The position numbers and the translations under genes were made by a program. The notes beneath the pieces are model-generated. The model ran no database searches, was not told the DNA's origin, and worked only from the letters and a program-made list of their open reading frames with translations. DNA of 63,913 bases, counting the filler, from Neolecta irregularis DAH-3 (taxonomy: Eukaryota), in assembly GCA_001929475.1 (NCBI GenBank). It is 26 parts of 26 records of this genome, joined end to end, with 100 filler letters (N's around TTAATTAATTAA, not from the genome) between each part and the next. Parts side by side here need not be neighbours in the genome. Positions count along the whole stretch, not along the records: positions 7,027 to 16,198 come from LXFE01001588.1; 25 more parts are not named here. One strand, written 5' to 3'. Shown here one piece after another: positions 336-47,399 of this stretch (the first letter of the stretch is position 1; every line of letters begins with the position of its first letter).

Positions 336-2420
336 CTAATTTCTTTTCCTTTTTATTGGTATTGGGTATTGCTTTAATTTCTTTTTGATTTTTCCTCTTT
401 GATAACCAATATTTGCTGGTTTTATTCTTTTTTCTTGTTTTTTGTATAGTGAGTATTCCTGGGTATATGAGTGTTCAGCTTCTTCTAGTATTGCATGGCA
501 GGTAGTCAAAACTTCTTTGACCTCTACCCTATTGATCCATGCTCTGTTTCTTTCATTGTTAGCTGCTGTAGCTCTGAACTTAACTCTTTGATAACCTTCT
601 GGATCTTTGATTGTAATCCATGTTTCCCCTTCAGCTGTATTTTCTGATTTCATTTGTCCACTTCTCTCATATGGTCTTCCCAAGAGCAAATCATACTTTG
701 CATGCTTGGTAACAAAGATGTTTGTTGGAATTGAAAATCCTCCTGTTTTGACTGGAACATCATGGCAGACTCCAACAAGTCTGCTGTTACTGCCATCAGC
801 TACACCAATCTGCCAAGCAGGTTGGTCATCCATCATCAAACCCAATCTTTTAACCATTCTGAATGGCATCAGAGATATTTCTGATCCACTATCAAAGATA
901 GCAGTGATATGCTGTCCCATAATCTGAACTTTGGCTTCTGGTGATGCAACTGAGTAGAAGGGTTTTTCCACAGTGGGTTCCTTGTATTCTTCAAATAGTA
1001 ATTCTTCTTCATTGGTAATCCATCTAGATTCCATGATTTGTCTCTTTCCTTGAACTTGTCCTGCAATAACTTTTCTGAGATCTGGTGATAATGCTAGGAG
1101 TTTTCCAATTGAGGTGGTGATTTGTGTGTTAAAAACTTCTTTGGAGAATTCATCTGCTGTGGTTTGTCCCATGATTGGTGCTCTGACTTGATATTTTATC
1201 CCTTCTTCAGTTTTTTCTTTGGTGGTAGTCTTTTTGTCTTCTTTGAATTCAATTGGTTTAGCTTTTTCCCATATAGATGATTGATGATCTGGTTTCTTTG
1301 GTTTTCTGGGTGGTTTGAGGGTTGCTGCTGGTGGAGTTCTTGCTTTTTCTGTTATAACTTCAACTACTGGTTGTTTGTATTGAACTTGCTTTACTGGTTG
1401 TTGCTTGATTGGTTGCTGTATAACTGGTTGTTGGGTAATAGGTTGTTGTTGTACTGTTTGTTGTATATCTATTTGTTCTTCATCTTCAGATTGTAGTTCC
1501 ACTGGTAGAGGTTGAATTTGCTGGTGAATCTTTTCTTTCTTCTGAGGTATTTCCCATTCATAATCATTGGTTGCTTTTCTTTTGTCTGCCATAACCCAAA
1601 CTGGTTTCCTGAAGTATTGTTGTTGCTGTGCCATATAGGAGTTGTATTCATCTTCATTGTTTGCTGAGTCTGAGTCTGAATCATCTTCATCTTCCCAATC
1701 ACTATTTGGTTCTAAGGTAACTGCATTGCTTCTGGGGTGTTGAACTCTGATAAGGTTGCTGATTTCTGGTAAGGTTCTCATGCCTCCTCTGTTCCATTGA
1801 GGTCTTAATTCTTTTCCTTCAATATCACAGATTCTGTTGTTGATTTTTTGAACTTTCCCTTCAGTTAGTGCTTCTTGTAGTTCTTGACATTCTCTTTGCA
1901 TGTGACCTTCATCACACCAAATGCATTTGATTGGTAGGTTTTGATTTCTTGGTTGCCAGGTTCTGTTGCTTGGTTGATTCTGATTTTCTGTGAGGTTCTT
2001 GAATGCAATTGATAGTGCTTTAACCTGCTCTGCTAGGTCTTGATGTTCTGGTTTTATTCTCCTGCTTGTTGCCAAAGGTGTATCTCTTGATCCAGTTGGT
2101 GGTACTTTAGGTGTTTCTTGTTTGGTGCTTCTTTCTTCTAGTTTTGCCCAGACAATATCCATTTTTACTTCTTCCATGACTTTTTTAGTGATTTCTTCAA
2201 ATGGTGGTGGTTCCACATTGATTGTTAATGCATTTTGTAGGTTGGTTGTTGTTTTTAATATCTTGTTTCTCAATCCTTTATCAAATCCACTGAGAAAAAT
2301 GTGAATTCTGTCAATTGGATAGAGTCTTTGTCTTGTGACCAGGTGTGCTGAAATAACTTGAAATTCCTGAACATATTTGAGTGTATCTGGTTTTGCTGCT
2401 TCTTTATGCTCCTGTGCAAT
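336..2420 (-). mobile_element. Ty3/gypsy-type Gag-protease ORF (partial, open to contig end)
   Basis: Uninterrupted frame from contig end 2420 to stop at 336. CCHC knuckle CIWCDEGHMQREC, retropepsin IFDSGSE...LLLGRP, and a YKKQEKRIKPA motif of the kind that precedes pol. No CpG seen in the contig. Confidence 0.85.
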
Positions 2421-6926: not shown

Positions 6927-7026
6927 NNNNNNNNNNNNNNNNNNNNNNNNNNNNNNNNNNNNNNNNNNNNTTAATTAATTAANNNNNNNNNNNNNNNNNN
7001 NNNNNNNNNNNNNNNNNNNNNNNNNN

Positions 7027-9917
7027 CCTCCCGCGGCTGTTCCCCGCGCGCGACTCGTGCTGCATCGCCCCCCCGGCCTCGCCCGCCGCCGCGACCGCCC
7101 CCGCGCCCGCCTCCGACTCGGACAACTACGACTCGGAGCCAGACCCGCCGTCGCCCCCAGAGTCCGCCTCCGCCTCCGCCTCCGCTTCCGCCTCCCCGCC
7201 CCTCGCCCGCGCCCGCTTCCCCTTCGAGACCGTCTACCACTCCTTTGAGCACGACCGCCTCGCCATGGCCGAGCAGCAGCAGCTCGAGCAGGCTGACCGC
7301 GACGTCGCCCAGCACTCGTTCCGCCCCAGTCTCGGCGCCGCCCAGCTCTCCCTCAAGGTATCTTTCTCTTTCTGTCCCTCTCCCTTTCTCTCATTCCCTT
7401 ATCTCCCTTATCTCCCTCATCCCACTTATCCCACTTATCCCACTTATCCACTCACATTCACTCATCCCCACTCACATCACTCACATCACTCACATCTAGC
7501 ACCTTCTCGCTGCAATTGATGCAAATCGCTCTGCCCTCGCGGTTTCAGACTCCCACCTGCGCGCCCTCCTCGTAGAAATACGCAAGAACCGCTCAAAATG
7601 GGTATCTCTCCCCCCAGCCCCGCTCACCCCAGGCCAGCGAAGACCGCTTCGGCCAGGAGGAACTCTACGAAGCCGCTGAAAAAGTCCTCCTCGAGCTCCG
7701 CGGCTACACAGAACACTCCACCCCCTTTCTCAACAAGGTCAGCAAAAGAGAAGCCCCAGACTACTTTGACTGTACCCATATTGCCCCCCCAGTATTAATC
7801 CTAGTCATCAAATCCCCAATGGACCTCGGCACCGCAATGAAAAAACTAAAAACACTCCAGTACTCAAGCAAGGCCGAATTCGTAGACGACCTCCTCCTCA
7901 TCTGGTCAAACTGCCTGCTGTACAATGCTGATCCTTGCCATTTCATGCGCACTCACGCAATCGCCATGCGCAAAAAGACCCTCGATCTCGTCCAGTTCAT
8001 CCCAGACATCACCATCCGCGACCGCCCAGACCTCGACCCCGAAGAAGATGAAAACTCTGACCAAGACCTGCCCAAACGCATAGGCAAAAAATCTGTGCAA
8101 AAAAAACATCCCTCGAGAAAATCGCAAATCCCCCTCCCCCCAGTCCGCGACTCGCCCCCTCCACAGCCCTCTCCTCCCCAACAGAATACCCTCATCCCCT
8201 GCTCCCAGATCGAAAAAGAAGAATCAAGCCGTGACGAGGACGGCGATTTGTCCACTCAAATTTGGAGAACAGAAACCCGCAAACAGCGAGCTATTCTTTG
8301 CGTACGCTTCATACTAGCTCTGCTGACACCCAGGGCGAACGGCACCAGCTATTCAAAGATGACCGCTTGCAACCTGACATGCCCGCCTTGGAACGTACCC
8401 CTCACCTCATGCTCCGTTTCCTCCAATTCGAACAACGACACGCTGGCCAAAACATGGAAGAAATAAATCTAAACATGGACGATTTAATCAACGAAATAGA
8501 AAGCAAAGAAATGAAAACTGATGATTCTGCTTTTGCCGAATACCAAGTATCGTCCGGGATCCCCGAACTCGTTTCCCAAGACGACGACGCTTTTTATCAA
8601 CAGTCTAGTGGAATTTCTCTCCACCCTTGTGATCCCAGAATCTCCCCGCCCAGAACCGGCACAAGCTGTCTTGTTGACGCAAATCTACGACAACTGTATA
8701 AAATCAGAAAAGTTTGTTTGAAAATATCTGCTGTTAAACAAATGGCTACACAGTCTTTTGTCCGTCCCTCGCGATACATTGCTGACCATAGATTCACCCG
8801 CACCATTATAAACAGTATGATTCTAAAGAATTCTTACAACAAGACGGACAACCGAGTTATTTCCTGGAAACGCCTCTCCTGGTAACTCCGCAAATCGCTT
8901 ACATCGCTTTACAAAAAGTTTCAGCGAGGATATTGTATCATACTGGATTTCAGGGTATCCTATTGTCCTGCAGGGCTGATTTCAGATTTTGAGCCGCTGG
9001 CTTTAGATGCTTTTGCGGAGATAACCGCGGAATTCTTTCATAAAATCGCGAGCACCATTCGCCTTTTTAGCGATAATCATAAAACGGGGTATTTCGGTTG
9101 CGTGTCGTGTATTTATTTCCAGGACTCGGTATTCTATGGAGCAAGTCTTGTTGCTTTCGCTGAATCGGAATGGCATCCCGGATTTAGATGTCCTTGAATC
9201 GTACGTCAAGGACGATATTGAACGGTACGGGTGTAAACTCCAAGACATCAATAAAAAAATGGTCATGTTTCTCGCTGCTTTATTGGTTTTTTCTCCACAT
9301 GCGCAAAGAGTAATTCTAGCGACCTGCCGCGGAACTGGGAGACGAAAATGCATTGTTCAATGGGAACAACGAGAGTTTTGTTAATGGCGATTTTTCAGAG
9401 ACTACCGGAGAGGACTTTTTTGGGTTCAAGGAACTTGGTTTAGACAAGGAGTTTGGAATTTCTTCGTTCAGTGTATGTTGCCCGTCGCCACTGTTGACTT
9501 TAGGTACCGTTGCATTTATTACAAGGACGCGTTCAAAATGGATTAACAACAAAGTATCTCGCTCGCTTATTAAACTTACTCCCTAGTCCCGCTCTTGTTT
9601 CAAAGTACCAGGAACCACCCCCATTCACTCCTATTTCAATCCCGATAGCAGAATCCCAAATCGGTTTAATAAAATTATTTCTCCTTTCGAAATTGGAAAA
9701 CTTTGAATCAGGAATCCTGTTGGACGACGATGATTTACCTGCAAAACAACGTGCACCAAGACTTAAACTCCCGCCTTCTGGAAAAATATCAACACCTAGA
9801 AAAAGAAATTTAACTTTTGGGTTTGCAAATGTCAAGAAGAAGAAGAAAATTGGTATCGTGGAAAATGGCGAATTATCCCAGCCCCCTGAAAGTCCCGATT
9901 CCTCTGTTGCTCAGTAA
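7027..9917 (+). CDS. SPT7: SAGA subunit Spt7 (bromodomain + histone fold), 5' truncated, ~9 introns
   Basis: [25 protein letters not shown], bromodomain [32 protein letters not shown], and [15 protein letters not shown]. Introns include 7602-7632, 7772-7804, 8302-8333, 8760-8791, 9089-9122 and 9286-9319. Confidence 0.95.
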
Positions 9918-10737
9918 TGTTTCGTTGAATTTCTCAATTATTACATAATCTACAAACATCTTGTCAAATACTCGTTGTCTATACTCTGCCCTTTGTCGAC
10001 GATTCCATTACTAGCTGATCATTCCAAACTTTCAACTCTGTCTCGGGATTATATTCGGCAGTGAGCTATGTGGCAATATCATTTCAAGTCTTGCATTTCC
10101 TCGGTTATGGCTCCTAGGATACTGGAAATATCATCCACCCGCTTGTCTGCGATGCACTCGATGACTAGTACGAAAACGCATTGGCCCAATGACTTGCGAA
10201 ATGGTATGTATACCATTTCGTGGGAGCGATAATGAAAACGAGATGTAGTGAGTGCCCTAATTCATACTATATCAATGTGGAGCCGATAACTATTGCTATC
10301 GCATAGTGAAATATATCTGGCTTTTACTTTTTAGATAGTAATACTTTGCGGAACAGAATTAACATAGAACCTGGTTATAACGATGTGGCGTTCACGGAAT
10401 TAGGACTCGTATCATATGACGTTGGATGATTTTCAAGGCGGTTGGGTTGGAATTCAGTAACGGAGGTTCCCGATCCTAGACAAATTCTCAAATTACAGTA
10501 CTCCTGCTCTGGACTCCAGTACTCCTGTTGTGGACTCTTCAATATTTATCTTGTTCTTATTATAATTCCATTGCATCAAGGCTTTTAGATGTATAAAATA
10601 GATATTTGCCGTGTTAGCTTTGAACCTGTTGACAAGAGTAATTCAGAGTCGTCAGTCGATTAACACCAACTTTTTTGCACCTGCCACAAACTGCTGCTTC
10701 ATCATTTCGTAGCAACCTTTTGTGTCTAGCATCTCAA

Positions 10738-13700
10738 ATGGCTTCAAATGACCTCGGACTTGTGGTCAGTCAGCTCTCATCGCCAGACAACCATATTCGA
10801 ACTGTGGCCGAGAACTCGTTGAATCAACTTGTAAATGATCGCCCTGACATGACAATACCTGCTCTTGCAGAACAAACTCGGCGGAATCCCGACCCGCAGG
10901 TGTGCTTTTTCGTTTTCAATCATTAAGACGAAATAGATTAGAAGTCTTTGCATCGTTTTACTTCGCAGAATGACATTTAAACCGCCTCCTAATAATTTGA
11001 ATGGTAAACTCATCTGGGTCGTCATAGGACCTGTGGCCCGAGCACAAATTCAGAATATGCTGCTACAAGGTCTTGAAACAGAACAAGACTCTGCCGTCCG
11101 GAGGAAACTTTGTGATACAGTTGCTGAATTTGCCAGACATATCATGGATGATCAAGGTGCATGCTCAGGTTTACAAGAACTGATTAATCATAGGCAGCTG
11201 GCCAGAACTCCTCCAATCACTTCTCGAATGTACAAAGTCCGCAGATCCCTCATTCAGAGATTCCGGATACCGCGTATTCATGTTCGTACCTGGTCTTATA
11301 GAGAGCCAGCATTCTTTGCATCTCGAGGCTGTTTTCAAAGCTGGACTCGAAGACTCGAATCCAGACGTATGTCTCAATTATCTTTTACTCATTAATCAAT
11401 AAAGGTTCGTCTTATTGCCCTCAAATCCTTTGCCTCCTTTCTGGTTTCTATGGATACGCAATCAGCTAAAAGGTTCACTACACTCCTCCCATCCATGATG
11501 AATGTCCTTCCCCCTCTCGCCAGACCAGAATGTGTCGAAGACCTGATACAGGCACTCATTGCTGTTGTCGAATTGGCCGGAGAACATGGCAGAATCTTCG
11601 CCGCTTTGTTTCCTAGCCTCATTCAATTTTGTATAAGCGTCGTGAAGAACAAGGAATTGGAGGACATGGCGCGCCAATCTGCTCTGGAACTCCTTGTTAC
11701 GTTCTCAGAATCATCCCCTGCAATGTGTCGCAAAACTGATCAATTTGCTCAACTTGTCATATTTGAATCCTTGTCTCTTATGACTGAAATCTCACAGGAC
11801 GACGACGATGCCACAGAATGGCGTCAATCTGATGATGTATACTTCATCTTGAACTGGTCCTAATATTTCTAGCTCGATTTTGATGAAAGCGACTCGAATC
11901 ACGTCGCTGGTGAACAGACTCTGGACAGAATCTCACGGAAACTTGGTTTGCTTGTTTTTTTCTCTTAATAACGATCTAGGTCCGAAAACTGTCGTTCCTG
12001 CAGCTTTTTCTTATTTGCCGGGTCTCATCGGTTCCCAGAATTGGAGGGAGCGACATGCTGCTTTGATGGCTATTTCCGCTATAGCAGAGGGATGTGATAA
12101 AGCTATGCGGAAAGAATTATCTCGAGTGCTGGATATGGTATTGCCAATGCTTAGAGATCCGCATCCTCGAGTAAAATGGGCTGCATGCAATGCAGTGGGT
12201 CAAATGAGCACAGACTTTGCGGATTACCTACAGCAAAATTTTCATCTTCGTGTTATGGAAGCGTTGGTGCCAATTCTTGAATCTCAGGAACCACGGTAAG
12301 CACTTCCTTAGCTATTGATCCTAAAATCAGAGTTCAAGCTCACGCTGCTGCTGCTCTCGTTAACTTTTGCGAGGCTGCTGATGATGATTTGATCGAGCCA
12401 TATCTCGATGGGATTCTAGAACGCCTTGTTGGACTTTTGAAAAGCGATAAAAGTTATGTTCGAGAACAGGCCACAACTACTATCGCTACCGTTGCCGGTG
12501 CCGCAGAGACTAAATTCGAAAAGTACTACGATCTCATTATGCCGTTGCTTTTGCAGATTTTATGGCAAGCTGATGGAGATGATCACAAGATGCTGCGGGC
12601 AAAGGCTATGGAGTGTGCTACTTTGATAGGTTTGTGTCTTGCATTGCTTCTTTTTCATTATAATAGCTACTGCCGTTGGCAAAGAGAAATTCGCACCAGA
12701 TGCTCAACAATTAATTCAAGTGCTTGGAACTATCCAGCGTAAGTCACTCTTTCATAATTTTAGCGTATATTGAAGATTTGCAGAGAATATCTCGAAAGAG
12801 GACGATCCTCAAACAAGCTATATCATTCCAGCATGGGGTCGTGTATGTAGAGCAATCGGTTCAGATTTCGTTCCCTATCTTTCCCACGTTATGCCATCGC
12901 TTATTAAATCGGCAAAAATCGAGCCAAACATCACAATCGTTGAAGGTAGTTGGTTTGATCCAAAAGTAATTCTCATACTTTAGATGAGGCCGAGGTGGCT
13001 AAATTCGATGAAGGTTGGGACTGGCTACCAACTCAAGGGCAATATCTCGGTATTAAAACGAGTTCACTCGAGGAAAAATGTTCCGCTGTCGAAATGCTAG
13101 TCGTATATGCATCTGTTTTAAAAGGGGATTTTGCACCTTATGTCCAGGAAGTTCTTTCTGATATTATCATACCTGGGCTCAAATTCAAATTCAACGAAGG
13201 AGTAAGAGAAGCTTCAGCAAAAGCATTGGCTCCCATGATTGATTCTGTCAAACGGGCATCAAATGGAGATACTAATATCGTCTCTCAAGTTTCCCGAACT
13301 TGCCTTGATAGGATTTTAGAACTCATGGAACAGGACCCAAATGTTGCTATGATTGCTGAAGCCTATCAAGCGTTTTACGAAACACTCGACGTTGTTGGCA
13401 CTCAATGCATCGCCGAAGCCGATATCAACCGCTTTATTGCCGCTACAGAAACTCAACTCCGAGATTATGTTAAACGTAAAGAGGCTCGGGATAAACATAT
13501 CGCCGAAGATGGAGAAGAAGCCGAACACGATGAAGATGTTATTGAAGAAATTGAAACGGATGAAATGCTCTTTGGAGAAATCAGCAAGGCATTGCATTGC
13601 ATGTTCAAGCTCTACAAAGCCGCTTATCTACCCCACTTCAATCGACTTTTGCCCATCGTCGATGCATTTATGAGCAGTAATGATCGAAACGCCAAAAACT

Positions 13701-14422
13701 GGTCGCTTTGTTTAATCGACGATTTGTTAGAGTTCATGGGACCTGAAGCTATAAATTACTCTCAACATTTTGCTTCTCAGCTGATGGTGGCGCTCGAAGA
13801 TAAAGGCATAATATCGATCGTCATGCGTTATTCGACTGACGGAGTAGATCCAGTGATTAGACAGGTTACGGCATACGGGATCGGTGTTGCTGCTCAATTT
13901 GGTGGTGAGGTTTTCTCTGAATTCTGTGCACATGCTTTGCCTCTGCTGTTCCAAATGACTGAAATTCCGGAAGCTCGCGACGATGACAACGTTTATGCGA
14001 CTGAGAATGCATGTGCTGCGATTGCGCGCGTATGTCGCTTTAATTCGAGTAAAATTCCGAATCTATCAAAAGTTATCAAAAGCTGGTTTTCAACTTTGCC
14101 CATTGTGAATGATGAGGAAGAAGCTCCTTTCGCATATATATTCTTGGCCGAACTCATCGAACAGTATTATGTGTTGTGCGATATAGTCCATTAACGGTAC
14201 AGGAATAACCCAGTCATCTCCGGTCACCAGGGTCAGTTGTTCCATTGCATAACCCAAGCACTTGAGGCAAATACAGTACAGGGAAAGAATGCCGAACGAG
14301 CAGTCGGGGCTCTCAAACAATTGATGACAATGTTACCCCCTGCTGAAGCACAAGCTCTCTTTCAACACATACCTCCTGAGCGGCAACAACTTCTTGCTAA
14401 TAAATTCCAGTTGTTCTGTTGA
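10738..14422 (+). CDS. PSE1: Importin beta-3 / karyopherin Kap121 (Pse1/Sal3), ~11 introns
   Basis: HEAT repeats: [98 protein letters not shown]. Includes a GC-AG intron at 13806-13847. Confidence 0.95.
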
Positions 14423-15182
14423 CCATTGCTTGTCCTTATCCAGCATGTGATTGGTGTCATAATTATAGATAATGCTATAAGTCACTTTGTATATTGATCA
14501 TGATTATTTGCATCAGACATTTTTGATAGTGACAAATGTAGTGCCTTAACCTGTGCTCAAATGTCCTGCCCACTATCGTCCTGGCAGCCCTCACTGCCCC
14601 AACTTCACCCACAGCCAGAGGTTGGTGGATGAGCAAATGGACAGGTGCAGGGGCAAGGTGATTGTATTTTGTGACGATGGGAATACACAGAGTACTAAAT
14701 GTTTGTCATTTTTCTTCTTTACCTACTGCACAAATTATACCTTTGTCTTTCCTTGACCACTTTTGCCGCGTCTCTGCTGGATAGGAGAACACTGGATGGA
14801 ATAACGGTCACACTGGTTCGCGTCCGCCCTCGTCCACAGGCATTCGTTCTCACTCACCCACCCTCACCCTTGTTAGTCGTAGCTATACTCACCCTCACCC
14901 GCCTCGCTATGTATCGCTATATATAGCCATACTCTCTTCAGACCCGCTCGCCGCCCTGCACAACGCATATGTAGCCGCCGCACAGGTTTTAGCCGCCAGA
15001 GAACTATCTTTAGAGGTTCTCATTGGACACATTGCAAACTTAGCCGCGAACCTACCCGAAATTGCAGTTTATGTGTTTCAGACGGATTAAACATTTCAGT
15101 GCCATAACTTTTTGCAAATTGGTCAGCAGTTTTCTATTTAATCGAACCCAATGCCATCGAGCATTTTCAATTCACATTCGCA

Positions 15183-15668
15183 ATGAAGTTTCTCGGTCTT
15201 CTACTATACTCCCTGTCCATTATCGCTATATCTGCAGAAGAGCATACCCACAGCTACTTTCAAATACTCGTCTCCAATTCCCAGGCCTGTGCTAAAGTTC
15301 TGGACTATCAATTAGTAATTGATTCTGCCGGGAGTCAATGTGGACGTTTCTTCATCGACCCCAAGCATAATTTGTTTTTCAGTGACCCGAATGGTGCTGC
15401 CAATAATAATATAGCCGTTTGGGAGGTCGACCATTACCAATTCCATTCCGACGATACCAAGTCCACGGATAAATTCGCGATCCAGCCCGATCAACAGAGT
15501 AGATTGACTCTGGGATTTCGGGACACCAGCGGATCCGTTCACTATAACTTTTTTCAATGTGGTTCCATGGATAACAGCCGAATTCAACAGACCGCTAATC
15601 CATTCTTAATGGACAATTTGCCAATGAATTGTTCGACCCTCACCCTCACGACTCAATTTGGAGTTTGA
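15183..15668 (+). CDS. Small secreted Cys-containing protein (161 aa), FxQC-motif family
   Basis: Signal peptide MKFLGLLLYSLSIIAISA, four Cys, NFFQCGS motif resembling the FYQC of the 52826 and 55730 proteins. Confidence 0.75.
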   Translation: MKFLGLLLYSLSIIAISAEEHTHSYFQILVSNSQACAKVLDYQLVIDSAGSQCGRFFIDPKHNLFFSDPNGAANNNIAVWEVDHYQFHSDDTKSTDKFAIQPDQQSRLTLGFRDTSGSVHYNFFQCGSMDNSRIQQTANPFLMDNLPMNCSTLTLTTQFGV

Positions 15669-15959
15669 AGTGAAATTAGCTGTTGAAAGGATTTTACTTA
15701 CGAAATAGGGTTGCTAGCAATATCGAAATTGAGGGAAGAAACACATGAATCAGACTCTCACATTAAGATTTAATATTTTTCAAGACACTGCTGAACAATG
15801 TGTCCAACCATTTTTATTTTGTTTTTAATATTGCAATACTATATCATAATGCAGGTGGTCTATATGGTTGTGAGCATAGGGTGTCTGGACTTGCCACTCA
15901 GGAGGTTTCCTTGGGAATATATGATCACAATCAGTGTTGGCAATAATATGCCAATAAAT

Positions 15960-16198
15960 ATGATATATCGTATATTGTGTGATATGATATGGGATTTTTC
16001 ATATTTTGCCAATATGATATAGGATTTTTCATATTTTGACAATATAAAATAGGATTTTTTATATTGTGACTATATGATATAAGATTTTTTCATATTGTTA
16101 CAATATAATATAAGATTATTTTCATATTGTGACCATATGATATGGGATTTTTTCATATTGTGACCATATGATATGGGTTTTTTTATATTGTGACAATA
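15960..16198. repeat. AT-rich ~30-bp tandem repeat (ATATTGTGACCATATGATATGGGATTTTTC-like)
   Basis: About 8 degenerate copies running into the linker. Confidence 0.9.
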
Positions 16199-17844: not shown

Positions 17845-18030
17845 CAGGCCTTTTAATAGCCGCCAGCAGCAGGCTGGTATCAACCGGAACAAGTACAAAG
17901 GAAAGGAGAACGGAAACGGAAAACAGCAAAGATATAAACCCGGGAGCGGCAGAAGGCTGCACATCAGTTTACCAGCCTCCCCGGAAGTAGCGATACAAGA
18001 AACAAAAGAGAAGAAAATAGGGAACGCCAG
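17845..18030 (-). repeat. Dispersed repeat family B
   Basis: Reverse-complement homology to 41735-41890 and 33255-33365 (CTACTTCCGGGGAGGCTGGTAAACTG..TGTGC, TTTGTAC, GATACCAG..TGCTGCTGGCGGCTATTAAAAG). Confidence 0.8.
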
Positions 18031-18388
18031 TATCTTTCTAGGCCTGCCAGAATGGTGTAGAGTGACGAAGGGAGGGGGAGGAAGGTTGGGTGGTTTCTCG
18101 CGGAAAAGACGAATATATTTGTTGATCATGTTGACCGTGCCACAGGCTTAGCCCGGCCCATTAAAAGCTCGTGGGCTTAGCACTCAACTCTTTCCGGCCT
18201 ATCTCAGTCGATGTAGATGTGTTTCACATCATTTGTGGCTTTTATTTCCGAGACATTACGGAAAAGCCAGAAGCAACTATCTTGCGTCATCTATACAAGG
18301 GCTTGATCCTGGAAAAAGGTTTTACACAACTCTTCACTCGATAGGCTTATACCGCACAAATCACCTTGCAGTCCATTTACCCTATATC

Positions 18389-19684
18389 ATGTTTAAGATC
18401 TTGTGGTCGATCGTGCTTCATACGAATCTCATTTGCGCCGCCTCATACCTCGGTCATTTCACAAAGGTCGAAATTAATTTGGATAATCCTTTGGTTCGCG
18501 CCCTTGACAAATCCTTTGTACAAGAGAAGATAGAGATATGTGCAGAGAAATGCTTCTTGGAAAAGTATTTCTGTAATTCATTCGTCCTCGTCTTTACTGC
18601 GAACCAAGTCATCCGATGTGTAACATCTGAGTACACGGATTGTTATCCGCATGTTAGAACTAGTCTTCTAATGATAGCACGCGCCAAGTAAGCACCTGTG
18701 ACATATGGAAATTGATAATATAGTTTCAAGGAACCACGAAAAGTTGACTTGCAAGATGAGTTTTCCCGCAATATAAAATCCAGTACAGAGTGGATCAAGG
18801 ACGTTAAAATGGGATATCCAGAAGGCGTACAGGGAAAAGACTGGGAATCCTTTTTGCTTGGCTGCTGGGAATCTGCGGTTAAAGGAAAACCAGTAACTGT
18901 AGTCGATATTATTGAGGAAAATGGTCTTTTGTCAGCTACCCGTGATTCAGGAGAGCGAGATGCTAAACGACGCAAACTCTCTGGCGATGAAGAAATCAGC
19001 GTTGAACGCACAGTCTCAAGACATTCGATCACCGAAGAAATCGGTGTTGGCCTCAAATCATGGCCTGAATCTTCAGAATTCTCAGACATAATTGCGCTGG
19101 CTTTTCTCGATATATTCAGCCACAACATTAATGGAGACTACACTACTGTTTTCGATCCAATAAAAAAGTCTTTGTTTATCCATGGAGAAGGCAATTACCT
19201 TTTTATCGTTTCATATGGCAACGGGGATTACGTTATCATAAGTGACCGGTTGAATGCTGTACGACCACCAAGCATTTATGTAGTGGGTCCCTATCAGAAA
19301 ATCCAGTCCGTATCTGCCTTTAAAATGTTTTTAGGAGCTATGAATCTTCTAGGCCACCAACAGACCTCTCGTCGTCCTGATGAATTTCCAATAGGTGCAT
19401 ACCCTGGTGATAATACGGGATCAGCATTAGTTGTTATATTATTTGCAAGAGCCGTCCTTCTGCCGACTTCGAACTCATACTACTACACCGATATATACAA
19501 TCGCTCAGAGCCTGGTATTCTGAAATGTCTTATCGACATGGTGCCATTTGTGCTCTCGAAAGTATATGACAAGAAGATTAGATCCAAGACAACTCAGTCT
19601 CGATTATGGAAAAGCAGTGTGGAAAACCATTTTGAAAAAAGTATGCTTGATATTATTACAGTTCCCAAAAGCGATTCTGGGTAA
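18389..19684 (+). CDS. Orphan secreted protein (~420 aa): signal peptide, Cys-rich PAN-like module, basic NLS-like motif
   Basis: MFKILWSIVLHTNLICAA start. 36-nt intron 18688-18723 (GTAAGC..TAG) joins the two ORFs in frame. CAEKC..CNSF..C module, ERDAKRRKLS motif. Paralog at 21945-22875. Confidence 0.8.
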
Positions 19685-21944: not shown

Positions 21945-22875
21945 CTACCTATTACCAGAATCGCTTCTTGTAATAATACCAATATCTGTAAAATGGGTTT
22001 CCAGGCTGTTTTTCCATAATCGAGACTGAGCTATATTGGATCCAATGTTTTTCCCATATACTTTAGAGAGCACAAATAACACCATGTCGGTAAGACATTT
22101 CTGGGATAGAGTGGATGGGCGTGTACCCCGGTAGTTATCCCTCAGAAGAATATGTGTCGCCTCGAATATAACGGTCAACGATGGTTGACTATGATTAAGT
22201 TCTCCAACTACTGCTGAATAAATAAAGGTCTGTCTGTGGCCTAGAAGATTCATAGCTTCTTCAAATATTTTCCTGGCAGATTCGACCTGGATGTCCTGAT
22301 TGTAGCCTATTTTCCATATGACTGGTTGAAGAATGGAACTGTACTCTATCATAACGTAATTTTCCTTGCCATATGAAACAATGAGAAGGTACATGTCATT
22401 TCCATGGATAAACAAAGACTTCTTTATTGGATCAAAAACGGTAGTGAAGGGTGGAACAATGTTTTTGCTGAATATCTCGAGAAAAGCGAGCACAATTATG
22501 TCTGAGAATTCCGAAGATTTTGGCCATGATTTGAGGGCAAGGTCGATTTCTTCGGTGATGGAATGGCCACGGATTTTGCTGCTAACGCTGATTTTTTCAT
22601 TGACCAAATCTTCAGAGATTTTGAGTCGTTTGGCCTTTCGCTCTCCTGTATCATTGTCCTCAATAAAATCACCTGTATCCTTATCCTTAACAATATCGAC
22701 TACAGTTGCTGGTTTGCCATTCATCGCAGATTTCCAGCAGCCATCCAATAAAAGATCCCAGAATGGATTGAGTACCCAGCGTAAATATCCCTTTTCAACG
22801 TTATCAATCCACGTTTGACTGGGTTCCATATTGTGAGAAAACTCGTCAACAACGTTAAATTTTCGTGGTTCCTTG
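21945..22875 (-). CDS. Paralog of the 18389 secreted protein (5' truncated)
   Basis: Shared blocks KEPRK, GCW.SA..GKP.TVVDI, HSITEEI...LKSWP.SSEFSDII.LAFL, TTVFDPIKKSLFIHG, AMNLLGH.QT, QSRLWK.S.E.HF. NLS-like ERKAKRLK. Confidence 0.85.
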
Positions 22876-23514: not shown

Positions 23515-24921
23515 TCATACATCTTTCAATAATCGACTGGAAGCAACCTTTGCAATATCCCAACGGCGCTTCAAATGGGTAGTTAAGCAACCGCGAATAA
23601 CTTCACTCAGGTCATAACCTATGGCTTGCCAGAGGCTATCCTCAAGGACAAAAGCCTCATCACCCCGTCGTCCAAGAAGGAATTCAAGCCTCCATCGAGA
23701 ATGAAATGCCCCAACTTCTTCGCGATAGAAGCCGGACATCTCATATAATACCACACCCAAAGCCCATATATCCGCCTTCTTTAAGTCCTCTTTTCGACCT
23801 CTCCTGTAGACTTGATATGACCACATTTCTGGAGCGATCATCTGTTTAGTCCCATACTCGTACTCAGTAGGAGGAGACCAACGGGTACCTTTAGTAGAGA
23901 GACCGAAATCAATGATGACTGGACGGAAGCATCGACCATCACATTGACCAAAATGAGAAACAACAGCATAATGAGTATAGGAATCCTTATAAAGGAGGAC
24001 ATTCTCTGCTTTGATATCACCATGGCCTACATTGTTCATGTGTATGTGCTTGATACCAGCCGCGATTCCGCGAACTAAATGCTTTAAGGTTTCAGGACGA
24101 AGGGCGTGACCGGCTTTATGAGGTTCATACTTTTCTTTAAGATATTGATGGAGGTCGCTATAAGCTAGGGGAGTTTCGATGAATGTGTATGGTCCAGCGT
24201 CAATCAGATTAAGGGCACTCTGAACGTTTTGATGATGAGATAGAAGCTTTGTGATCTCGACTTCAGCCTTTGCTGCACTCATGGCGTGACTGTCAGTCTT
24301 ACGAATGAACTTGATAGCTCGATATCCTGATTTGATAACAAAGCCCCCACCGCCATGAGCAATAATTTTTTCAAGTCGACAGCTGTGAAGAAAGATGCTT
24401 GAACGAATTGCTGCAGCAAAGTTGACTTGAAGGGCATGTCTTTTGGCGTCTTTGTAGTTTCGAAATTTATCATCACTGAGAATGAGCTTGCGTACATTGT
24501 CTTCTATATTGTCCAGCTCGATAAACTGTACGGTCGATATAAGTGATATGGGACGATTCTGTCAGAGTAAGCTCTGAGGTCAATTTAAGGCTGGCACCTT
24601 TTCCACTACATCAGCGGCAATCATTTTGAGAAATAGGGGATCCGGCAAGGCCATCAAGTCGGGCCTAGAAAGATCGGCATGTTCGATATCTATACCCGAG
24701 TTTTGCCACCGAATTCCCTGTTGTCGAGTACTCGAACCGACCAAGGTTCTGTCTTGCCCATAGATAGTATTTCGGCCGCTGTATACTTGCTTTTTCACAT
24801 TGATACGGAGTTTTTTGTTCATCAAACTAATGATATCCCCAATCTCATCCTTGATTTTTCGAACGACCTTGTTACGAAATTGGGTCACACGCGTCTTGCG
24901 AGGGTTTTCCCATACAGTCAT
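23515..24921 (-). CDS. Divergent Ser/Thr protein kinase
   Basis: Intron 24559-24597 (GTGCCA..CTGACAG) joins the N-terminal ORF to the kinase frame. AHGGGGFV loop, AIK, alphaC Glu, HGDIKAEN, DFG, APE, DIWALG. Confidence 0.85.
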
Positions 24922-25624
24922 GATTGAATATACGAATAACAAGAAACAGAGTGGGAGTGGAGTGTGGATGTACACAAACTGAAGGCTGCTAGCGTGGACA
25001 TTGTCTGAAACATCAACACCGTGCTGCTTCGGGCATGGCCAAGATTAATAAATTTACCGCGCAAAGGCAAAGGCAAATGCGTAAAGCCTCAAGTGTATCC
25101 GTATGGCAAGTCAGCGACACGAGGAGGCTTAATTTCTTTTCTTCCAGCATTCATATCTCTTGAAATTGCCCTACGCCCAGAAGTATCGGTGTTTGCGGGT
25201 TTTAAAATCAAAAAAGAAGAGACATCGATATAGTGGAGAACTCGGCGAAGAATCTAACTGAATGAGATCCATGTTGAACTCAACTAAAACCCTGGTCTGC
25301 AAAGCGAACAATGTATTCATTGTACAGCTTGTGACAGAATGAAGTCAGGTTTTAGTCGGGGCTTGAAAAGCTTTGGCGCCGCATTATTAAACCCTTCGGA
25401 ATATTCACCGATCAGCACCAGAAGAGACGATGCGCTCCTTCTTTCGTCCAAATGCCGACGATCTCATTGTACTATAATGAAAGGATGGACTAGTGTCTAT
25501 TGAATATAACACAAGATGAACAGGTTAAACCCAAAGTCGACCTTTGGTTGACCCATTTAATTCTACTAAGCTTTACAATCTCCCTTCTTTGAAGATGCCT
25601 GGGAACCTGTGGAGATACTGCTAT

Positions 25625-27995: not shown

Positions 27996-28662
27996 CCCGG
28001 CAGGCTCGACCGCCAAGCCGAAGAGCACAAGGCATGCATTACCGCCCGCCGCGGCTGCCTGGCTGACTGCTCGAGGTGCTCTCGTCGCCCGCCCGCCTTC
28101 AAGCTGCCCATCTACGCCCGCTTAAAATACTAATTTTTGGAAAGTATATTTTATAAAATGGCGCCTGAAATTCCAATGTTTTAAAAAGCCACATTTATGT
28201 GGAGCGAACCAAACGTGCGCCTGAAANNNNNNNNNNNNNNNNNNNNNNNNNNNNNNNNNNNNNNNNNNNNTTAATTAATTAANNNNNNNNNNNNNNNNNN
28301 NNNNNNNNNNNNNNNNNNNNNNNNNNCCCCCCATAATCCTACCCCCCCAAAAAGTTACCCCCCCATTAATTCGGGTAATATGAAAAACTCTCCAAGTCCA
28401 ACAACCTACTACTATAAAAACCTACCCCCCCATAATCCTACCCCCCCAAAAAGTTACCCCCCCCAAATTCCGGGGAAAATAATAGAAACATCCTCAAGAC
28501 TAAAAACAAAGCTACCAAAGAAGTGGAATAGCAATACCAGAACAAATAAATACAGCTACCCCTATAAAAACCAAAGTAGATACAACAAACACAATATAAA
28601 GATAAACATGACTGAGGGAAAACCAAAGAAGAGATACCTCAAAAAGCATACCAAAGATAAAA

Positions 28663-30117
28663 ATGTCCTTTACATTAGCGACACTGAACTGTAGGGGATT
28701 ATCAAACCCAACCAAGTATGCAAATCTAATGAGATATGCAACTGAAAGAAACATAGACATACTCATAATGCAAGAAACCCACTTATGTGAGGAAAAAGCA
28801 AATAGAATTGAAGGAAGATTCCCAAGGATCACACTCATTCATAACTGCCCAAATAGCAATTCTACAGGCATATCTGTGGCAAGTCTGAACCCAAAAAACA
28901 AAATACAAAAACTAAATGACCTACAGTGGGATATAGAAGGTAGGACAATAAAATTCAAACTCTACCCAGAAGGTGGGGGAGAATACACAATCGTGGGAAT
29001 ACATATCCCAAATGGAGACCAGCTAATATGCCAATTCTTAGAAAAATTAGAAATATCAGAAAGGGAAAACCAAACAAATGAAAACAAAACAGATATAATC
29101 TGTGGTGACTGGAACTGTGTAGAAAGAAGTTGGGATAGACTACCTAACAGAGTAGACTCACTACCAATTAGAGAAGCAATTAGCAAATTAAAAATCTCCC
29201 TAGAAATCGAGGATGAATGGGTAAAGCTAGAGGAAGACCAAGAGTTTACCTTTAAAAACTATAGAAACTGTCATAGTAGATTGGATAGAATATACACACA
29301 TAAACAACTAGAAAATTGCCTAGTAAACTGGCAAACAAGGAAGGTACCAATAAAAACTGACCACAAGATGGTATCAGTAATGATAAACAAAGATCACCAA
29401 ATACAAAGAGGCAGAGGACCCTGGAAATTAAACCCAGAATCCCTTGAAGACAAGGAGTTCATAACCCAATTGGAGAATGAACTAGAAAAAGTACAAGAAG
29501 AAAACCCAATAGAAAGTCTGAAAAAAAGAAAGGAAATAATAATTACAACAGCCAAGAAATGGACTGTTAAACAAGCAAAGAAGAGAAAAACGAAAGAAAA
29601 AGCACTTAAAAGGAAGATCTTGGTAATAAACCAAGAAATCCAGAATAACACAGCAAACCCAAGCAGAATAAGAACTAGGGATGAAGCTGAAAAAGTACTG
29701 GGTCAATGGATAAATAAAAATTTTGACCTAGAAAAGACAATCTCAATGGGAAGATTTAAAGAAAAGTCATCAAGATACTTCTACCAAGCAGGTAAATTAA
29801 AAACCAAAAAACAACCAATAAAAGGGTTGAGAAATGAACAAGATGTATACTGTACAAGGGAAGCATCAAAGAGAAAAGTTGCAGAAAACTACTATGAAAA
29901 GTTAATGAGCAAGGGAATAACAATGCCCCTGGCACAGAGTGAAATGGTGTCTCATATCAAAGTATGTATAACAGAGGAATCACAAAACAAAATAACTGAA
30001 GAAATAACAGAAGTGGAACTAGAAGACCACCTGGCCAAATGCAAAAATGACAGGGCAGCTGGTATTGATGGAATACCTTATGAGATATACAAAAACTCAG
30101 ACCTCAAAGATCTGATA
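28663..30117 (+). mobile_element. Non-LTR retrotransposon ORF2 (APE endonuclease + start of RT), L1/Tx1-like
   Basis: TLNCRGL, MQETH, GDWN, SRLDRIY, TDH, GRGPWKLN, AAGIDGIPYE.YK. Intact to contig end; only about 6 CpG in the 1.8-kb contig. Confidence 0.92.
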
Positions 30118-31430: not shown

Positions 31431-32822
31431 NCAGAAACCCGCAGAGAAAGCTATGAAAGAACTGAACGGCATCATAATTGATGGACGGACTGTTGCTCTT
31501 GACTTTGCATTATTGCCTAAGGACCAATGGGAAGAAGTGCAGAGAGAAAGCGAAGAAGAAGACATGCTCAAACGTAAGCGTGAAGATGCTGGGTTGGAAA
31601 GGAGGAACATGAAGACCCCTCAGAGGTAGAGGCTGAAACTATCGATTCTGCAGAACATTCAGATGAAGAAATGTCATCTAACGGGGATAAGACACCCCAA
31701 AACGAAAAACAAAATAAATCATACGACGATTGCACCCTTTTTGCCCGCAATTTACTATTCGAGACCACAGAAGACGAACTGAGTCATCACTTCTCAAAAT
31801 TTGGACGTTTACGCTATGCCAAAATTGTTATTGATCCACGTATGAACTAACCTCGAGGAACGGGTTTTATATGTTTGTTCAGACCCGAAAATGCCAAGGA
31901 ACTGCTGTGTCTCGCGTCAAAGTTGCCAAGAGTCAATGCAATTGGTGATTCAATTATGGATCCTCAGGATCCAGACCTCATTGCAAATCAGTTTCGACTG
32001 AACGGTCGAGTTCTCTTGGTTTCGAAGGCAGTCAAACGAGACGAAGCCGTAAAACTCAAAGATGATTTTGTGAGTAAAAAACTTTACAAAGAAGAAAGAG
32101 TTGATAAAAGAAATTATTCCTGTTAAATGAGGGAGGCATGTGATATGGATGCTGACGAACTACTAATAAGTAGCTATTCCAACAAATCATCCTTTGGCTC
32201 AAGTGCTATCGACTACAGATCTCCAACTTCGGTCCCAGTCACTAAAACAAAGAAGGTACCTTCTCGTCAAAAACCCTACGCTTCATCTATCCCTAACCCG
32301 TCTTTCAGTTCGCAATATTCCTCGACATTATTACATCAACAGATCTCAAAGCCTTGGGCCGAAACTCTGTTGTGCAATTTGTGACTGAAGTCAAATCTCA
32401 AGAGCGTGCCCCTCTGACAGTTGAAGAAAAGCGACGTGACAGGGTTATTCAGAAAGGGAAGAAAGGTATCGTCAAGCAGGCAAAAATAGTCACCGAGGAT
32501 AATGGCTGAAGCCGAGGCTATGGATTTATCGAGTTCACATCGCATCGTCATGCACTGATGGGTCTACCTTGGCTTTAAAATGCTCGAGAAATTGCTGTTT
32601 CTGACTCTTCTGAGGAAAATCCTGATAGAACCGACTGTAAACGACTTCTGATAGTTGAATTTTCTATCGAGAATGCACAGGTCGTTAAGAGACGTGCGGA
32701 GAGAGAAAAGAAGGCACGCGACAATGCTACATCGAGTAAATTCGCTGAAATCACTTAACAGAAAAAAAGGAAACGAGAGGAGGAGGATATCCAGGATAAT
32801 TTAGAACAGGATACAAAAAGAA
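31431..32822 (+). pseudogene. NOP4: NOP4/RBM28 (multi-RRM) pseudogene fragment
   Basis: [85 protein letters not shown]. In-frame TAA near 31848 and several frameshifts; retains a GC-AG intron at 32136-32173. Confidence 0.85.
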
Positions 32823-34329: not shown

Positions 34330-36397
34330 CTATCATCCATCCACTTGTCAACTTAAAGTCCCATAAGAGAGTTTTTACCTTCAACAAGACAAAGACTCTC
34401 ACAATTAACCTTGTATTCTGGTTCCTCCCTTCTGTGCCCATTGGCTGCTATTGTCTGTTGAGTTCTTGCCTGAATCAGATTATCTTGAGTGATCTCATTA
34501 TATATTTCTATTCTGGCAAGCCATGTGTCTGCCGCCAGGATCATGTCATCTGTCGATGAGAAAGGTGGGAATGAACATACTCTGCATCCATATAGTAATT
34601 CAAATGGCGAGAATCCCGTTGACATGGAAACCATGGTATTCATTGAGTACTCAATTTCCAATAAGTAGTTTGCCCAATCTGTCTGTCGGCTATTTACATG
34701 ATGGCGAAGTAGTTGAATTGCTGTTTTATTAGATCTCTCCAATACCCTGTCTGTTTCCAGATGAAAGGCAGTCGACATCTTTAATTGAATGCCGATTCTC
34801 TTATATATCTGTTTCCAAAATCTTCTTGTAAAACGTGTATCCCTGTCTGAGATAATCGATCGAGGCAGACCATATAATCGTTACCAATGATGATATACCA
34901 AATCCGCTACATTATATGCAGATGCCATCATATTCGTGGGGTGAATCTGTACAACATTGGTGAATAGATCAGTAATAACCAGTAAAGCATTATAACCATT
35001 TGATTTCGGCAACGGTTCCACAAAGTCCATTCCAATAGATTCCAAATGTGAACCCGGAACTGGTAACGAGTGCAAAAATCCTGCTGGCAGAAGAGTGGTA
35101 GCTTTCAGTCTTTGGCATTCATCGCACGATGATACATACTTTTCTGTATCTTTAGATAACCCTGGCCAATAATATTCAGAACATATTGCCTTGTATGTCT
35201 TATCTAACCCAAAATGACATGAGCAATCATGATGGGCATAAAGCAGTCGTTTGCGGATCCCTTTGTCGCGCGGGATACATAAGCGTTGACCAATGTAAAA
35301 AAAACAGTTCTTATTCTCATAGGCCGGATATCGTTAGGGATGGAAAACTACGTCAGCTATAAATGGATCTGTCGTGTAAGCCATCTTGATCTTGTGTCCT
35401 TCACTTTAGGATAGATGAACGGTAGTGGTGATCTGTAATAATTCACCCTCCTGTGGTTGACTTTCATATCATGAGAGAGCGTCAGCCGCCACGTTGAGGC
35501 GACCCTCCAAATATTGTACGTCGAAATCAAAATGACTGAGAAAATCTAACCATCGTAGCTGGCGATAAGACAGATGCATTTGAGAATGCCAGTGCTTCAG
35601 TGGTTAGTGGACCGTTAGGACCACGAACTTGAACCTGATGAGGTGGTGAGCCCACTTCTTTAATGTGAAGATAATGGCCAGCATTTCTCGCTCATGTGTT
35701 GGATAATTAGCTTCTGCCGGTGTATATTAGAGGCTTTCAAATGATGCAGGTTTGGCAGTATGCCATGTTGATCCCTATGCTAATATACACCCCACTCCTT
35801 TTTTACTTGCGTCTGTAATCACCCATATTGGATCTTCGAGTTGTTCGTTTATTGGTGTGAGCTATGCAGTGGTTGTCGTAAGTTACTTTATCTCTTTAAA
35901 TGAGTTTTCTTCTGTCAGAGTCCAACGAAAAGGTGTTCCCTTCCTTGTGAGGCGTGTTAACGGAGCTGCATAGTTTGCTAATCTGGGCAGGAACTTCGAA
36001 ATATAGTTTATGAATTCCATAAAACATTGGATCTCTTTGATCAAGTGTGGCCATTTACAGTTTTTTATTTTATCTACCTTATCCAGGTCTACACTTATAC
36101 CTTGATTCAAGATTACATGTCCTAAGAATTGGAGTGCATCTGCAAATGGAACTGACTTTTTACGAGATGCTAATATACCATTCGTCCTCAAGAGATCCAA
36201 TATCGTTGTGAGGTTCTTCCTGTGCTCTTCGATAGAGTTCGACCATATTAATATATTATCGAGATATACAGCACACATTATAGCGATGTATTCCCTTAAT
36301 AGATGATTCATGAATCGTTGAAAGGTTGCAGGGGCATTACAAACCCCCTGCGGCATCACTGTCCATTCGAATAAACCAAATGGTGTCTTAATGGCTG
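34330..36397 (-). mobile_element. Degenerate Ty3/gypsy pol (RT-RNaseH-integrase)
   Basis: MPQGVCNAPATFQRFMN, YLDN, TDASKKGVG, NYPTHEREMLAII, H....HFG, IGMDFVEPLP, IISDRD, MSTAFH, GFSPFELLYG. Many stops and frameshifts. Confidence 0.92.
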
Positions 36398-47100: not shown

Positions 47101-47399
47101 AGGCAGGTGGTAACAGGCAGTGTTGTGGACAGGCCATGGTGTAATCTTAACGCCAGAAGTTACAAATAAGACCAGGATTTATTTCTTAAGTCTGACCCGG
47201 CTGGTGCTGTTGTGTGGGGGTGGTGGGACCTGATAGTGCCCACACTGACTTACAACACTTAGGCTAGGTATGTCCCTGTACGGAGTTACAACAGGTAGGC
47301 TCTAAGGCTAGAAATAAATCCTGGTCTTATTTGTAACTTCTGGCGTTAATTAAGCTTACACCATGGCCCGTCCACAACACTGCCTGTTACCACCTGCCT
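47101..47399. repeat. Fold-back (~90-bp inverted arms) built from a hAT-like TIR and an LTR end
   Basis: 47101-47188 is the reverse complement of about 47309-47399. Each arm contains CAGTGTTGTGGAC.GGCCATGG and a family-A-like CCTGGTCTTATT...TTACA. Confidence 0.85.

Follow-up and report, generated by a model that had tools for sequence, protein, structure and literature searches.

How are introns of little more than 30 nt recognised when their 5′ splice sites lack much of the usual fungal consensus? The question is raised by a 9172-base contig of Neolecta irregularis DAH-3 which carries the genes for the SAGA subunit Spt7 and for importin beta-3, and which occupies positions 7027-16198, between two spacers, of the window, the 63,913-base chain of about 27 short contigs analysed here. 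A preliminary description of the region 7338-14212 had proposed that its mini-introns have nearly unconstrained 5′ splice sites, that they are defined mainly by length and branch point, and that the machinery reading the donors has been altered. Our analysis, based on DNA and protein homology, confirms the weak donors but finds them less free than was proposed. We consider it probable that they belong to ordinary U2-type GT-AG introns of an intron-rich fungus, close to the minimum workable size, with 5′ splice site constraint much relaxed, above all in the loss of G at position +5, and read by intron definition.

The contigs of the window are joined by N44-TTAATTAATTAA-N44 spacers with stops in all six frames (52 N runs between 2421 and 62840, for example that at 6927-7026), across which no feature should be read. 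An exon of the importin gene is 100% identical to the database entry 'Importin subunit beta-3, partial [Neolecta irregularis DAH-3]', and its neighbour on the same contig is the N. irregularis 'Transcriptional activator spt7, partial'. A third gene, at 46658-51124, corresponds to the N. irregularis 'Leptomycin B resistance protein pmd1, partial', an ATP-binding cassette (ABC) transporter. Deposited proteins were placed on the DNA by exact matching, giving the deposited intron models. Since these gene models are themselves predictions, we built a spliced aligner of our own, in which a protein profile (mean BLOSUM62 scores over 11 orthologs, the Neolecta protein excluded) is matched to the DNA with GT or GC as the only donors, AG as the only acceptor and no donor weight matrix. 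A donor-blind ab initio parser, combining codon usage, a length prior, a branch motif and YAG, was run alongside.

Together these gave 31 homology-supported introns: 11 in importin, nine in Spt7, seven in the ABC transporter and three in RPL5, all by spliced alignment, plus one more in RPL5 by frame logic. A second tier of eight introns, in Nup133 and a UBC-fold gene, rests on the donor-blind parser, frame logic and, in part, the continuity of Pfam coordinates, and brings the set to 39 introns in six genes. Ab initio genes that score weakly or are unverified (17846-19684, 45258-46559, 52726-54211 and 57687-58786) were left out of the counts, as were an RRM gene at 31432-32758, a kinase at 23515-25320 and the retroelement open reading frames.

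All seven Spt7 and importin introns to which the preliminary description gave coordinates were returned, to the nucleotide, by the ortholog-guided spliced alignment. The deposited NCBI models contain six of them as well, but have 7572-7617 where we find the seventh, 7602-7632. The earlier estimate that about five of some 50 introns start with GTAAG agrees with our counts (three of 31, or three of 39 with the second tier). Among the donors cited from elsewhere in the window, GTCAAG (60597-60634) and GTGCGC (60774-60816) are consistent with reading frame and domain structure, while GTGCCA (24559-24597, minus strand) and GTAGGG (28691-28733) were called only by the ab initio parser. The possibility that canonical donors lie hidden beside the odd ones was addressed by enumerating all GT-AG pairs of 25-160 nt within 45 nt on either side and keeping both flanking frames open: in none of the 31 introns did this yield another GTRNGT donor compatible with the frame. 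Thirty of the 31 are GT-AG introns and one is a GC-AG candidate, the aligner being limited to these boundaries. On the evidence of DNA and orthologous proteins, the weak-donor mini-introns of N. irregularis can thus be taken as confirmed.

These introns are short, 29 of the 31 measuring 31-45 nt (median 37; two longer introns measure 58 and 142 nt), and their donors are diverse. There are 23 different donor hexamers among them; only seven conform to GTRNGT and nine to GTNNGT. Position +5 is occupied by A in three, C in six, G in 15 and T in seven. Preferences are nevertheless visible elsewhere: G at -1 in 17 of the 31, A at +3 in 23, T rather than A at +4 (19 against five), and T (19) or C (9) but never G at +6, followed by a pyrimidine-rich stretch at +7 to +10. 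The weak consensus is G/GTATnT. Adding the second tier leaves the picture unchanged, with +5G in 19 of 39 donors and GTRNGT in nine.

This residual signal has discriminating power. Scored with a leave-one-out weight matrix, real donors average +1.84 bits, whereas 431 GTs from the exons of those genes average -3.78 bits (Mann-Whitney p=1e-14), and just 2.6% of the exonic GTs reach the median real score. The description of the 5′ splice sites as nearly unconstrained is accordingly right in that they fall well short of the fungal GTRNGT norm, but it is overstated, since there are preferences for -1G, +3A, +4T and +6Y, and real donors score above exonic GTs. Over positions -3 to +6, agreement with the U1-complementary consensus averages 5.0/9 in Neolecta, 3.5 in the decoys and 5.5 in control fungi (see below), so that U1 complementarity is modestly lower overall than in the controls and differently distributed over positions. 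Donors with -1G/+5H (10) and with -1H/+5G (eight) are similarly frequent; seven have G at both positions and six at neither. No compensation between -1G and +5G is seen in this two-by-two table, nor are donors that are stronger on the exon side weaker on the intron side (Spearman rho -0.09, p=0.6, n=38).

The comparison with other fungi was made with the same pipeline. An alignment of importin orthologs was used to draw 80 fungal loci from metagenome contigs, and the identical aligner was run on 50, the other 30 being partial genes or near-duplicates. These yielded 0-7 introns per locus and 140 unique introns with GT donors and lengths of 40 nt or more (median 55); four 'introns' of 27-30 nt, with donors GCAGGT, GTTCTT, GTGATG and GTACTC, fell below 40 nt and were dropped as probable in-frame indels. 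The contrast is greatest at +5, where G is found in 15 of the 30 Neolecta GT donors (about 50%, 95% confidence interval 31-69%) but in 131 of 140 control donors (94%; Fisher p=7e-8). T at +4 is commoner in Neolecta, 18/30 against 26/140 (p=1e-5), while 65 of the 140 controls have A there. GTRNGT donors are rarer (7/30 against 82/140, p=5e-4) and +3R slightly so (26/30 against 137/140, p=0.019), whereas +6T does not differ (19/30 against 87/140, p=1). At seven importin intron positions shared with the controls, +5G is present in 131 of 138 control introns and in four of the seven from Neolecta. Expressed as intron-side information from +3 to +6, Neolecta has 2.0 bits and the controls 3.3, with nearly all of the gap at +5 (0.21 against 1.55). 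Matches to the U1 consensus at four or fewer of nine positions are found in 11 of 30 Neolecta GT donors and 20 of 140 controls, and the controls have seven -1G/+5H donors to 80 of the -1H/+5G kind. The features of the typical fungal 'right-handed' class, namely near-invariant +5G, a GTRNGT majority, little exon-side bias and an excess of -1H/+5G donors, are thus absent from the Neolecta set.

At the other end of the intron, branch-like yTnAy motifs take the form CTRAY in 11 of the 31 introns, TTRAY in 10 and a looser form in 10. In 28 of the 31 this A is found 6-13 nt before the 3′ end, the same number have C or T at position -3, and the distance from 5′ splice site to branch A is mostly 22-35 nt (median 27). 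A purely geometric filter (GT, 31-45 nt, yTnAy at 6-13 nt, YAG) passes 21 of the 31 real introns along with 21 pseudo-introns in 9837 exonic nt; seven of these pseudo-introns score at or above the 10th percentile of real donors, and not one attains their median. Seen from the acceptor, an average of 2.5 GTs fall in the window giving an intron of 28-60 nt, in eight of 29 cases the true donor is the sole GT there, and in 23 of the 29 it has the highest score of the GTs present. The proposal that length and branch point do most of the defining therefore holds to the extent that geometry narrows the donor search to about 2.5 GTs, but geometry acts together with the donor signal and not in its place.

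The narrow geometry and the small number of competing GTs favour intron definition with a tight ruler. In the scheme that we favour, introns would have shrunk to a near-minimum 31-45 nt, and the constraint usual in fungal 5′ splice sites would be much reduced, most of all for +5G. Recognition would be by intron definition: a yTrAy branch point 6-13 nt before YAG would be bound, and branch-point and 3′ splice-site recognition would set a narrow search space. As the 5′ splice site would have to precede the branch A by some 22-35 nt, competition would be confined to two or three GTs, and weak, distributed contacts (-1G, +3A, +4U and +6Y, amounting to about five of nine U1-consensus matches) could suffice to choose the right one. 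The data themselves establish where the introns lie, how long they are, how often each signal occurs and how Neolecta differs from other fungi; from this pattern we infer the order of recognition, the unchanged state of the U1, U5 and U6 small nuclear RNAs (snRNAs) and whatever part changed protein factors may play.

Could the odd donors instead be artefacts of gene modelling, with transcripts using nearby canonical donors or with some of the 'introns' being translated? Gene models in this genome do give grounds for suspicion: the deposited Spt7 model is faulty at four sites, the ABC model merges two introns and the exon between them, two of the introns with lengths divisible by three lack an in-frame stop, and the GC-AG candidate is coding in the deposited importin model. 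In fact all three deposited models checked (Spt7, ABC and importin) deviate from the ortholog-supported structure. Yet the artefact would have to survive the absence of any frame-keeping canonical alternative in the 31 introns, and intron removal restores conserved open reading frames in importin, Spt7, the ABC transporter and RPL5, with invariant motifs re-formed at the junctions. Retention would produce a stop or a frameshift in 29 of the 31; the donor-blind parser arrives at identical boundaries for 26 of the 30 GT-AG introns; seven of the 11 importin introns occupy conserved positions; and the identical pipeline yields canonical donors in other fungi. At the level of sequence the artefact explanation is largely refuted, and we regard it as extremely unlikely.

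A different kind of alternative looks for a cause in the machinery. If the U1 5′ end or the U6 ACAGAGA box had itself changed, the donors might pair well with the altered snRNA, and the excess of donors with four or fewer of nine U1-consensus matches (11/30 against 20/140) would be indirect support; PMC10581693 cites a U6 change of this sort in the red alga C. merolae. Such a change should, however, have created a new consensus, while what is seen at +5 is a preference lost (A3, C6, G15, T7), with the standard preferences at -1, +3 and +6 kept. Moreover, the same article reports U1 ACUUACC and U6 ACAGA to be invariant in 236 and 240 species respectively despite shifts in the 5′ splice site, which makes a changed snRNA the less likely cause, and we think it very improbable here. 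A changed trans-acting protein has rather more in its favour. Loss or alteration of METTL16, which writes the N6-methyladenosine (m6A) of U6, or of SNRNP27K would replace A by U as the favoured base at +4 and alter how U6 reads +4 to +6; a LUC7L3-type protein, if retained, would help donors that are strong on the exon side (-1G) but weak at +5. The swing at +4 (T in 19 and A in five of the 31 Neolecta donors, against 26 and 65 of the 140 controls) is in the expected direction, as is the ratio of -1G/+5H to -1H/+5G donors, 10 to eight against seven to 80, and a +4U preference has been linked to METTL16 or SNRNP27K loss across Saccharomycotina (PMC10581693). That link comes from intron-poor yeasts, though, and may not transfer, and the exon-side and intron-side strengths of Neolecta donors are not anticorrelated. 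A changed protein factor is compatible with the explanation preferred here, of relaxed U2-type introns read by intron definition, but it goes further in naming a cause, and as such we hold it to be possible rather than probable. The contrasts of Neolecta with the generalisations of Kenny et al. (2025) and Parker et al. (2023) nevertheless suggest that a change in METTL16, SNRNP27K or the LUC7 subfamily is more plausible than the altered U1/U6 that the preliminary description had in mind.

Several points weigh against the explanation by relaxed U2-type introns and intron definition. The sample is small, 31 (39) introns from four (six) genes in a single window, and the introns are known from DNA and protein homology. 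Boundaries other than GT/GC...AG are invisible to the aligner, and the stopless introns 7772-7804 and 13806-13847, whose lengths are divisible by three, could in principle be coding inserts. All 50 control loci are closest to Pezizomycotina references and represent one subphylum, a different one from that of the taphrinomycotine relatives S. pombe, Pneumocystis and Saitoella; control introns are orthologous among related species, hence non-independent, and their exon-side frequencies mirror shared codons. Finally, six of the 31 donors lack both -1G and +5G and have 3-6 of nine U1-consensus matches, three of the six having just three. So few matches offer very little for standard U1 pairing and leave room for changed machinery.

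In a bolder version of events, the spliceosome works largely as a molecular ruler, with the branch point set 6-13 nt from the 3′ end and the donor 22-35 nt upstream of it, accepting as few as three U1 base pairs (GUA), and the donor repertoire stems from a lineage-specific change in U6/U1 accessory factors: METTL16 or SNRNP27K function lost, a LUC7L3-type protein that other Dikarya have lost retained, or both. We put this forward only tentatively. If true, N. irregularis would be the first intron-rich fungus of that sort, with plant- or animal-like donors in which +4U is preferred, half lack +5G and left-handed sites are about as common as right-handed.

The individual genes illustrate how the introns were placed, all of them on the plus strand. 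The Spt7 gene (7028-9917) is 5′-partial at the contig start and, from the deposited protein and the ortholog-profile spliced alignment, has nine introns. Five of these are common to both models and short: 7772-7804 (33 nt, GTACCC), in frame and stopless, whose removal restores the bromodomain stretch PDYFDfIKSPMDL and for which no alternative solution was found; 8302-8333 (32 nt, GTACGC); 8760-8791 (32 nt, GTCCGT); 9089-9122 (34 nt, GTATTT); and 9286-9319 (34 nt, GTTTTT), at the conserved junction LL/RPA. The sixth on which the models agree, 7358-7499 (142 nt, GTATCT), lies at the conserved junction LSLK/HLLA. It is a CT-rich array of short direct repeats, with CCCACTTAT and CACTCACAT units, in the GC-rich (55%) 5′ part of the gene. 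The other three come from the spliced alignment: 7602-7632 (31 nt, GTATCT), restoring KNRSKW/ASED; 8955-8985 (31 nt, GTATCC), restoring a histone-fold stretch and not in the deposited model; and 9473-9503 (31 nt, GTATGT), again restoring a conserved stretch. The deposited model has 10 introns, of which 7572-7617, 8882-8918 and 9471-9503 are replaced by these three and 9554-9605 is dropped, leaving six of our nine identical. All three replacements bring back strongly conserved stretches of protein, and it is because of its wrong introns that the deposited Spt7 protein lacks the PF07524 domain carried by most orthologs.

For importin beta-3 (10738-14422) the deposited model and the spliced alignment agree on all 10 GT-AG introns (34-45 nt). 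Seven share profile column and phase with introns in the importin genes of other fungi, and so are old, orthologous introns: 10900-10936 (37 nt, GTGTGC; position common to 39 control loci), 11157-11193 (37 nt, GTGCAT; 23 loci, one column off), 11367-11404 (38 nt, GTATGT; 28 loci), 11837-11872 (36 nt, GTATAC; eight loci), 12630-12666 (37 nt, GTTTGT; one locus), 12739-12783 (45 nt, GTAAGT; one locus) and 14164-14202 (39 nt, GTATTA; 38 loci). The other GT-AG introns are 11946-11979 (34 nt, GTTTGC), 12296-12330 (35 nt, GTAAGC) and 12946-12983 (38 nt, GTAGTT). To these the spliced alignment adds the candidate GC-AG intron 13806-13847 (42 nt, GCATAA...CTGACGGAGTAG), stopless and in frame, which is coding in the deposited model. 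It has CTGAC 8 nt before its 3′ end and would encode a 14-residue insert missing from all 11 orthologs, so that it is probably an intron. The 1103-codon gene would then contain 11 introns.

In the ABC transporter (pmd1-like) the spliced alignment gives seven introns, of which five are common to the deposited model: 48076-48112 (37 nt, GTATTC), 48280-48316 (37 nt, GTAGTT), 48717-48756 (40 nt, GTAAGT), 50321-50364 (44 nt, GTATGT) and 50784-50818 (35 nt, GTAATT). The remaining two, 47850-47893 (44 nt, GTATCT) and 47956-47994 (39 nt, GTATGA), are fused in that model, along with a 62-nt exon, into a single 119-nt intron (47876-47994). The third of the shared introns ends in two AG acceptors 6 nt apart (48745-48756, TTATAG/GAGCAG); homology and the deposited model choose the distal one and the donor-blind parser the proximal (48750), which may be an alternative 3′ splice site adding two residues. 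RPL5 has an intron right after its ATG, 59312-59369 (58 nt, GTACGC), deduced by frame logic from an in-frame stop upstream of PFVKEV with no ATG between, orthologs starting M.FVK; spliced alignment adds 59452-59494 (43 nt, GTATCT), 59702-59739 (38 nt, GTGAGT) and 60186-60229 (44 nt, GTGTGT).

The second tier comprises five introns in Nup133, called ab initio, and three in the UBC-fold (UQ_con) gene. For 39153-39187 (35 nt, GTATGT) the Pfam Nucleoporin_N match covers 1-146 in exon 1 and resumes from 147 in exon 2, and for 39443-39476 (34 nt, GTATAT) the Pfam coordinates are roughly continuous; 40120-40153 (34 nt, GTATGG), 40549-40585 (37 nt, GTACCA) and 40893-40930 (38 nt, GTGTGT) are ab initio only. 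In the UBC-fold gene, frame logic and the ab initio translation give 60597-60634 (38 nt, GTCAAG) and 60706-60743 (38 nt, GTACCT), and frame logic gives 60774-60816 (43 nt, GTGCGC), after which the next exon begins at UQ_con profile position 41.

Five donors of the form GTATCY (GTATCT at 7358, 7602, 47850 and 59452, and that at 8955, which continues as GTATCCT) brought U12-type introns to mind, these having an RTATCCTT donor and a TCCTTRAC branch site 10-15 nt from the 3′ end. Their branch regions, however, read CTCAC, CTGAT, TTGAC or CTGAC and not the U12 box, and the candidates were rejected; four of the five are 31-44 nt long, the exception being 7358-7499 at 142 nt. Over the whole set of 39, intron length is divisible by three in only six (binomial p=0.01), four of which contain an in-frame stop. 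The deficit resembles selection against translatable retained introns, but we set it aside as evidence since stopless introns of such lengths are harder to detect.

Other contents of the window deserve brief mention. An RRM-protein gene on the plus strand (31432-32758) has longer putative introns in the donor-blind prediction (43-126 nt), with the odd donors GTTAAA, GTCAAA and GTTTAC; it could be mis-modelled, or its contig could come from another organism in field-collected material. Long intron-less open reading frames resembling retroelements lie on several contigs, at 339-2420 (minus), 28612-30117 (plus), 34356-36449 (minus), 61431-62738 (plus), 21948-22874 (minus) and 18719-19681 (plus). 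The first matches aspartyl-protease and DUF4100 families of Pfam, and the others have reverse-transcriptase- or integrase-like motifs, by eye only. An Rfam scan of the whole window gave no match at the gathering threshold or at E≤0.1, and thus no snRNA gene in the window.

The Neolecta introns themselves are mostly already in public annotation. A literature search on the genus, judged mainly by titles and the beginnings of abstracts, found no description of its splice signals, and a term search of the main text of the genome paper, the supplement lying outside it, found neither 'intron' nor 'splice' (PMC5309816). The weak donors also have a practical side. Standard predictors mis-splice this genome, as the three deposited models show, so that Neolecta proteomes used in comparative studies probably hold many errors; the weak donors probably mislead gene predictors genome-wide. 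More broadly, Neolecta offers a natural test case for how splicing machinery locates introns with little sequence help. Current models describe fungi as 'right-handed', with +5G nearly invariant, and associate +4U with a low number of introns; as an intron-rich ascomycete with 31-45-nt introns, a +4U preference, +5G in only about half of its donors and many -1G/+5H sites, Neolecta is a natural exception on which models linking the shape of the 5′ splice site to METTL16-dependent U6 m6A, SNRNP27K and LUC7 subfamilies could be tested.

Several known systems resemble Neolecta in part. S. pombe and Pneumocystis have short introns, a branch point near the 3′ splice site and intron definition. Neolecta shares the short introns and the 3′-close branch point, but its introns in the window are shorter (median 37 nt), and S. 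pombe donors are much nearer to GTAAGT or GTATGT. The tiny introns of ciliates and nucleomorphs are shorter still and have strong GTA(A) starts; the likeness lies in the narrow, near-minimum length range and in lengths that are mostly not divisible by three or that come with in-frame stops. Among intron-rich eukaryotes with weak 5′ splice sites the common ground is high intron density together with a degenerate donor. Over 1211 orthologs, the intron count is 4202 in Neolecta, 862 in S. pombe and 639 in Taphrina, and Pneumocystis is likewise intron-dense (PMC7940399); 5′ splice sites are more conserved in intron-poor than in intron-rich species (Irimia, Penny and Roy 2007, on the co-evolution of intron number and splice sites, as cited in PMC8476143 and bioRxiv 10.1101/2021.03.19.436190). 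Weak donors in an intron-rich genome with short introns are thus expected from a known trend, but Neolecta is still an outlier among fungi: +5G is near-invariant in our Pezizomycotina-like controls, as in the published fungal panels, and stands at about 50% in Neolecta.

The preference for +4U and the abundance of -1G/+5H donors are likewise unusual for a fungus, and the papers searched do not describe them. According to Kenny et al. (2025, PMC11842720), the fungi analysed there have strong intron-side and little exon-side bias and no LUC7L3, and in two intron-rich fungi -1H/+5G donors are 4-15 times commoner than -1G/+5H, which is tied to the absence of LUC7L3. The fungi of that panel are strongly right-handed; Neolecta, which lies outside it, is not, having the left- and right-handed classes of animals and plants in similar numbers (10 and eight) and -1G in 55% of donors. 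Across the 240 species of Parker et al. (2023, PMC10581693), little variation is reported at -1, +3 and +5, and the +4U preference is a trait of intron-poor species. Neolecta resembles the +4U-preferring yeasts that lack METTL16 or SNRNP27K in favouring U over A at +4 (19 against five of 31), but those yeasts are intron-poor, whereas Neolecta is intron-rich and relaxed at +5 too.

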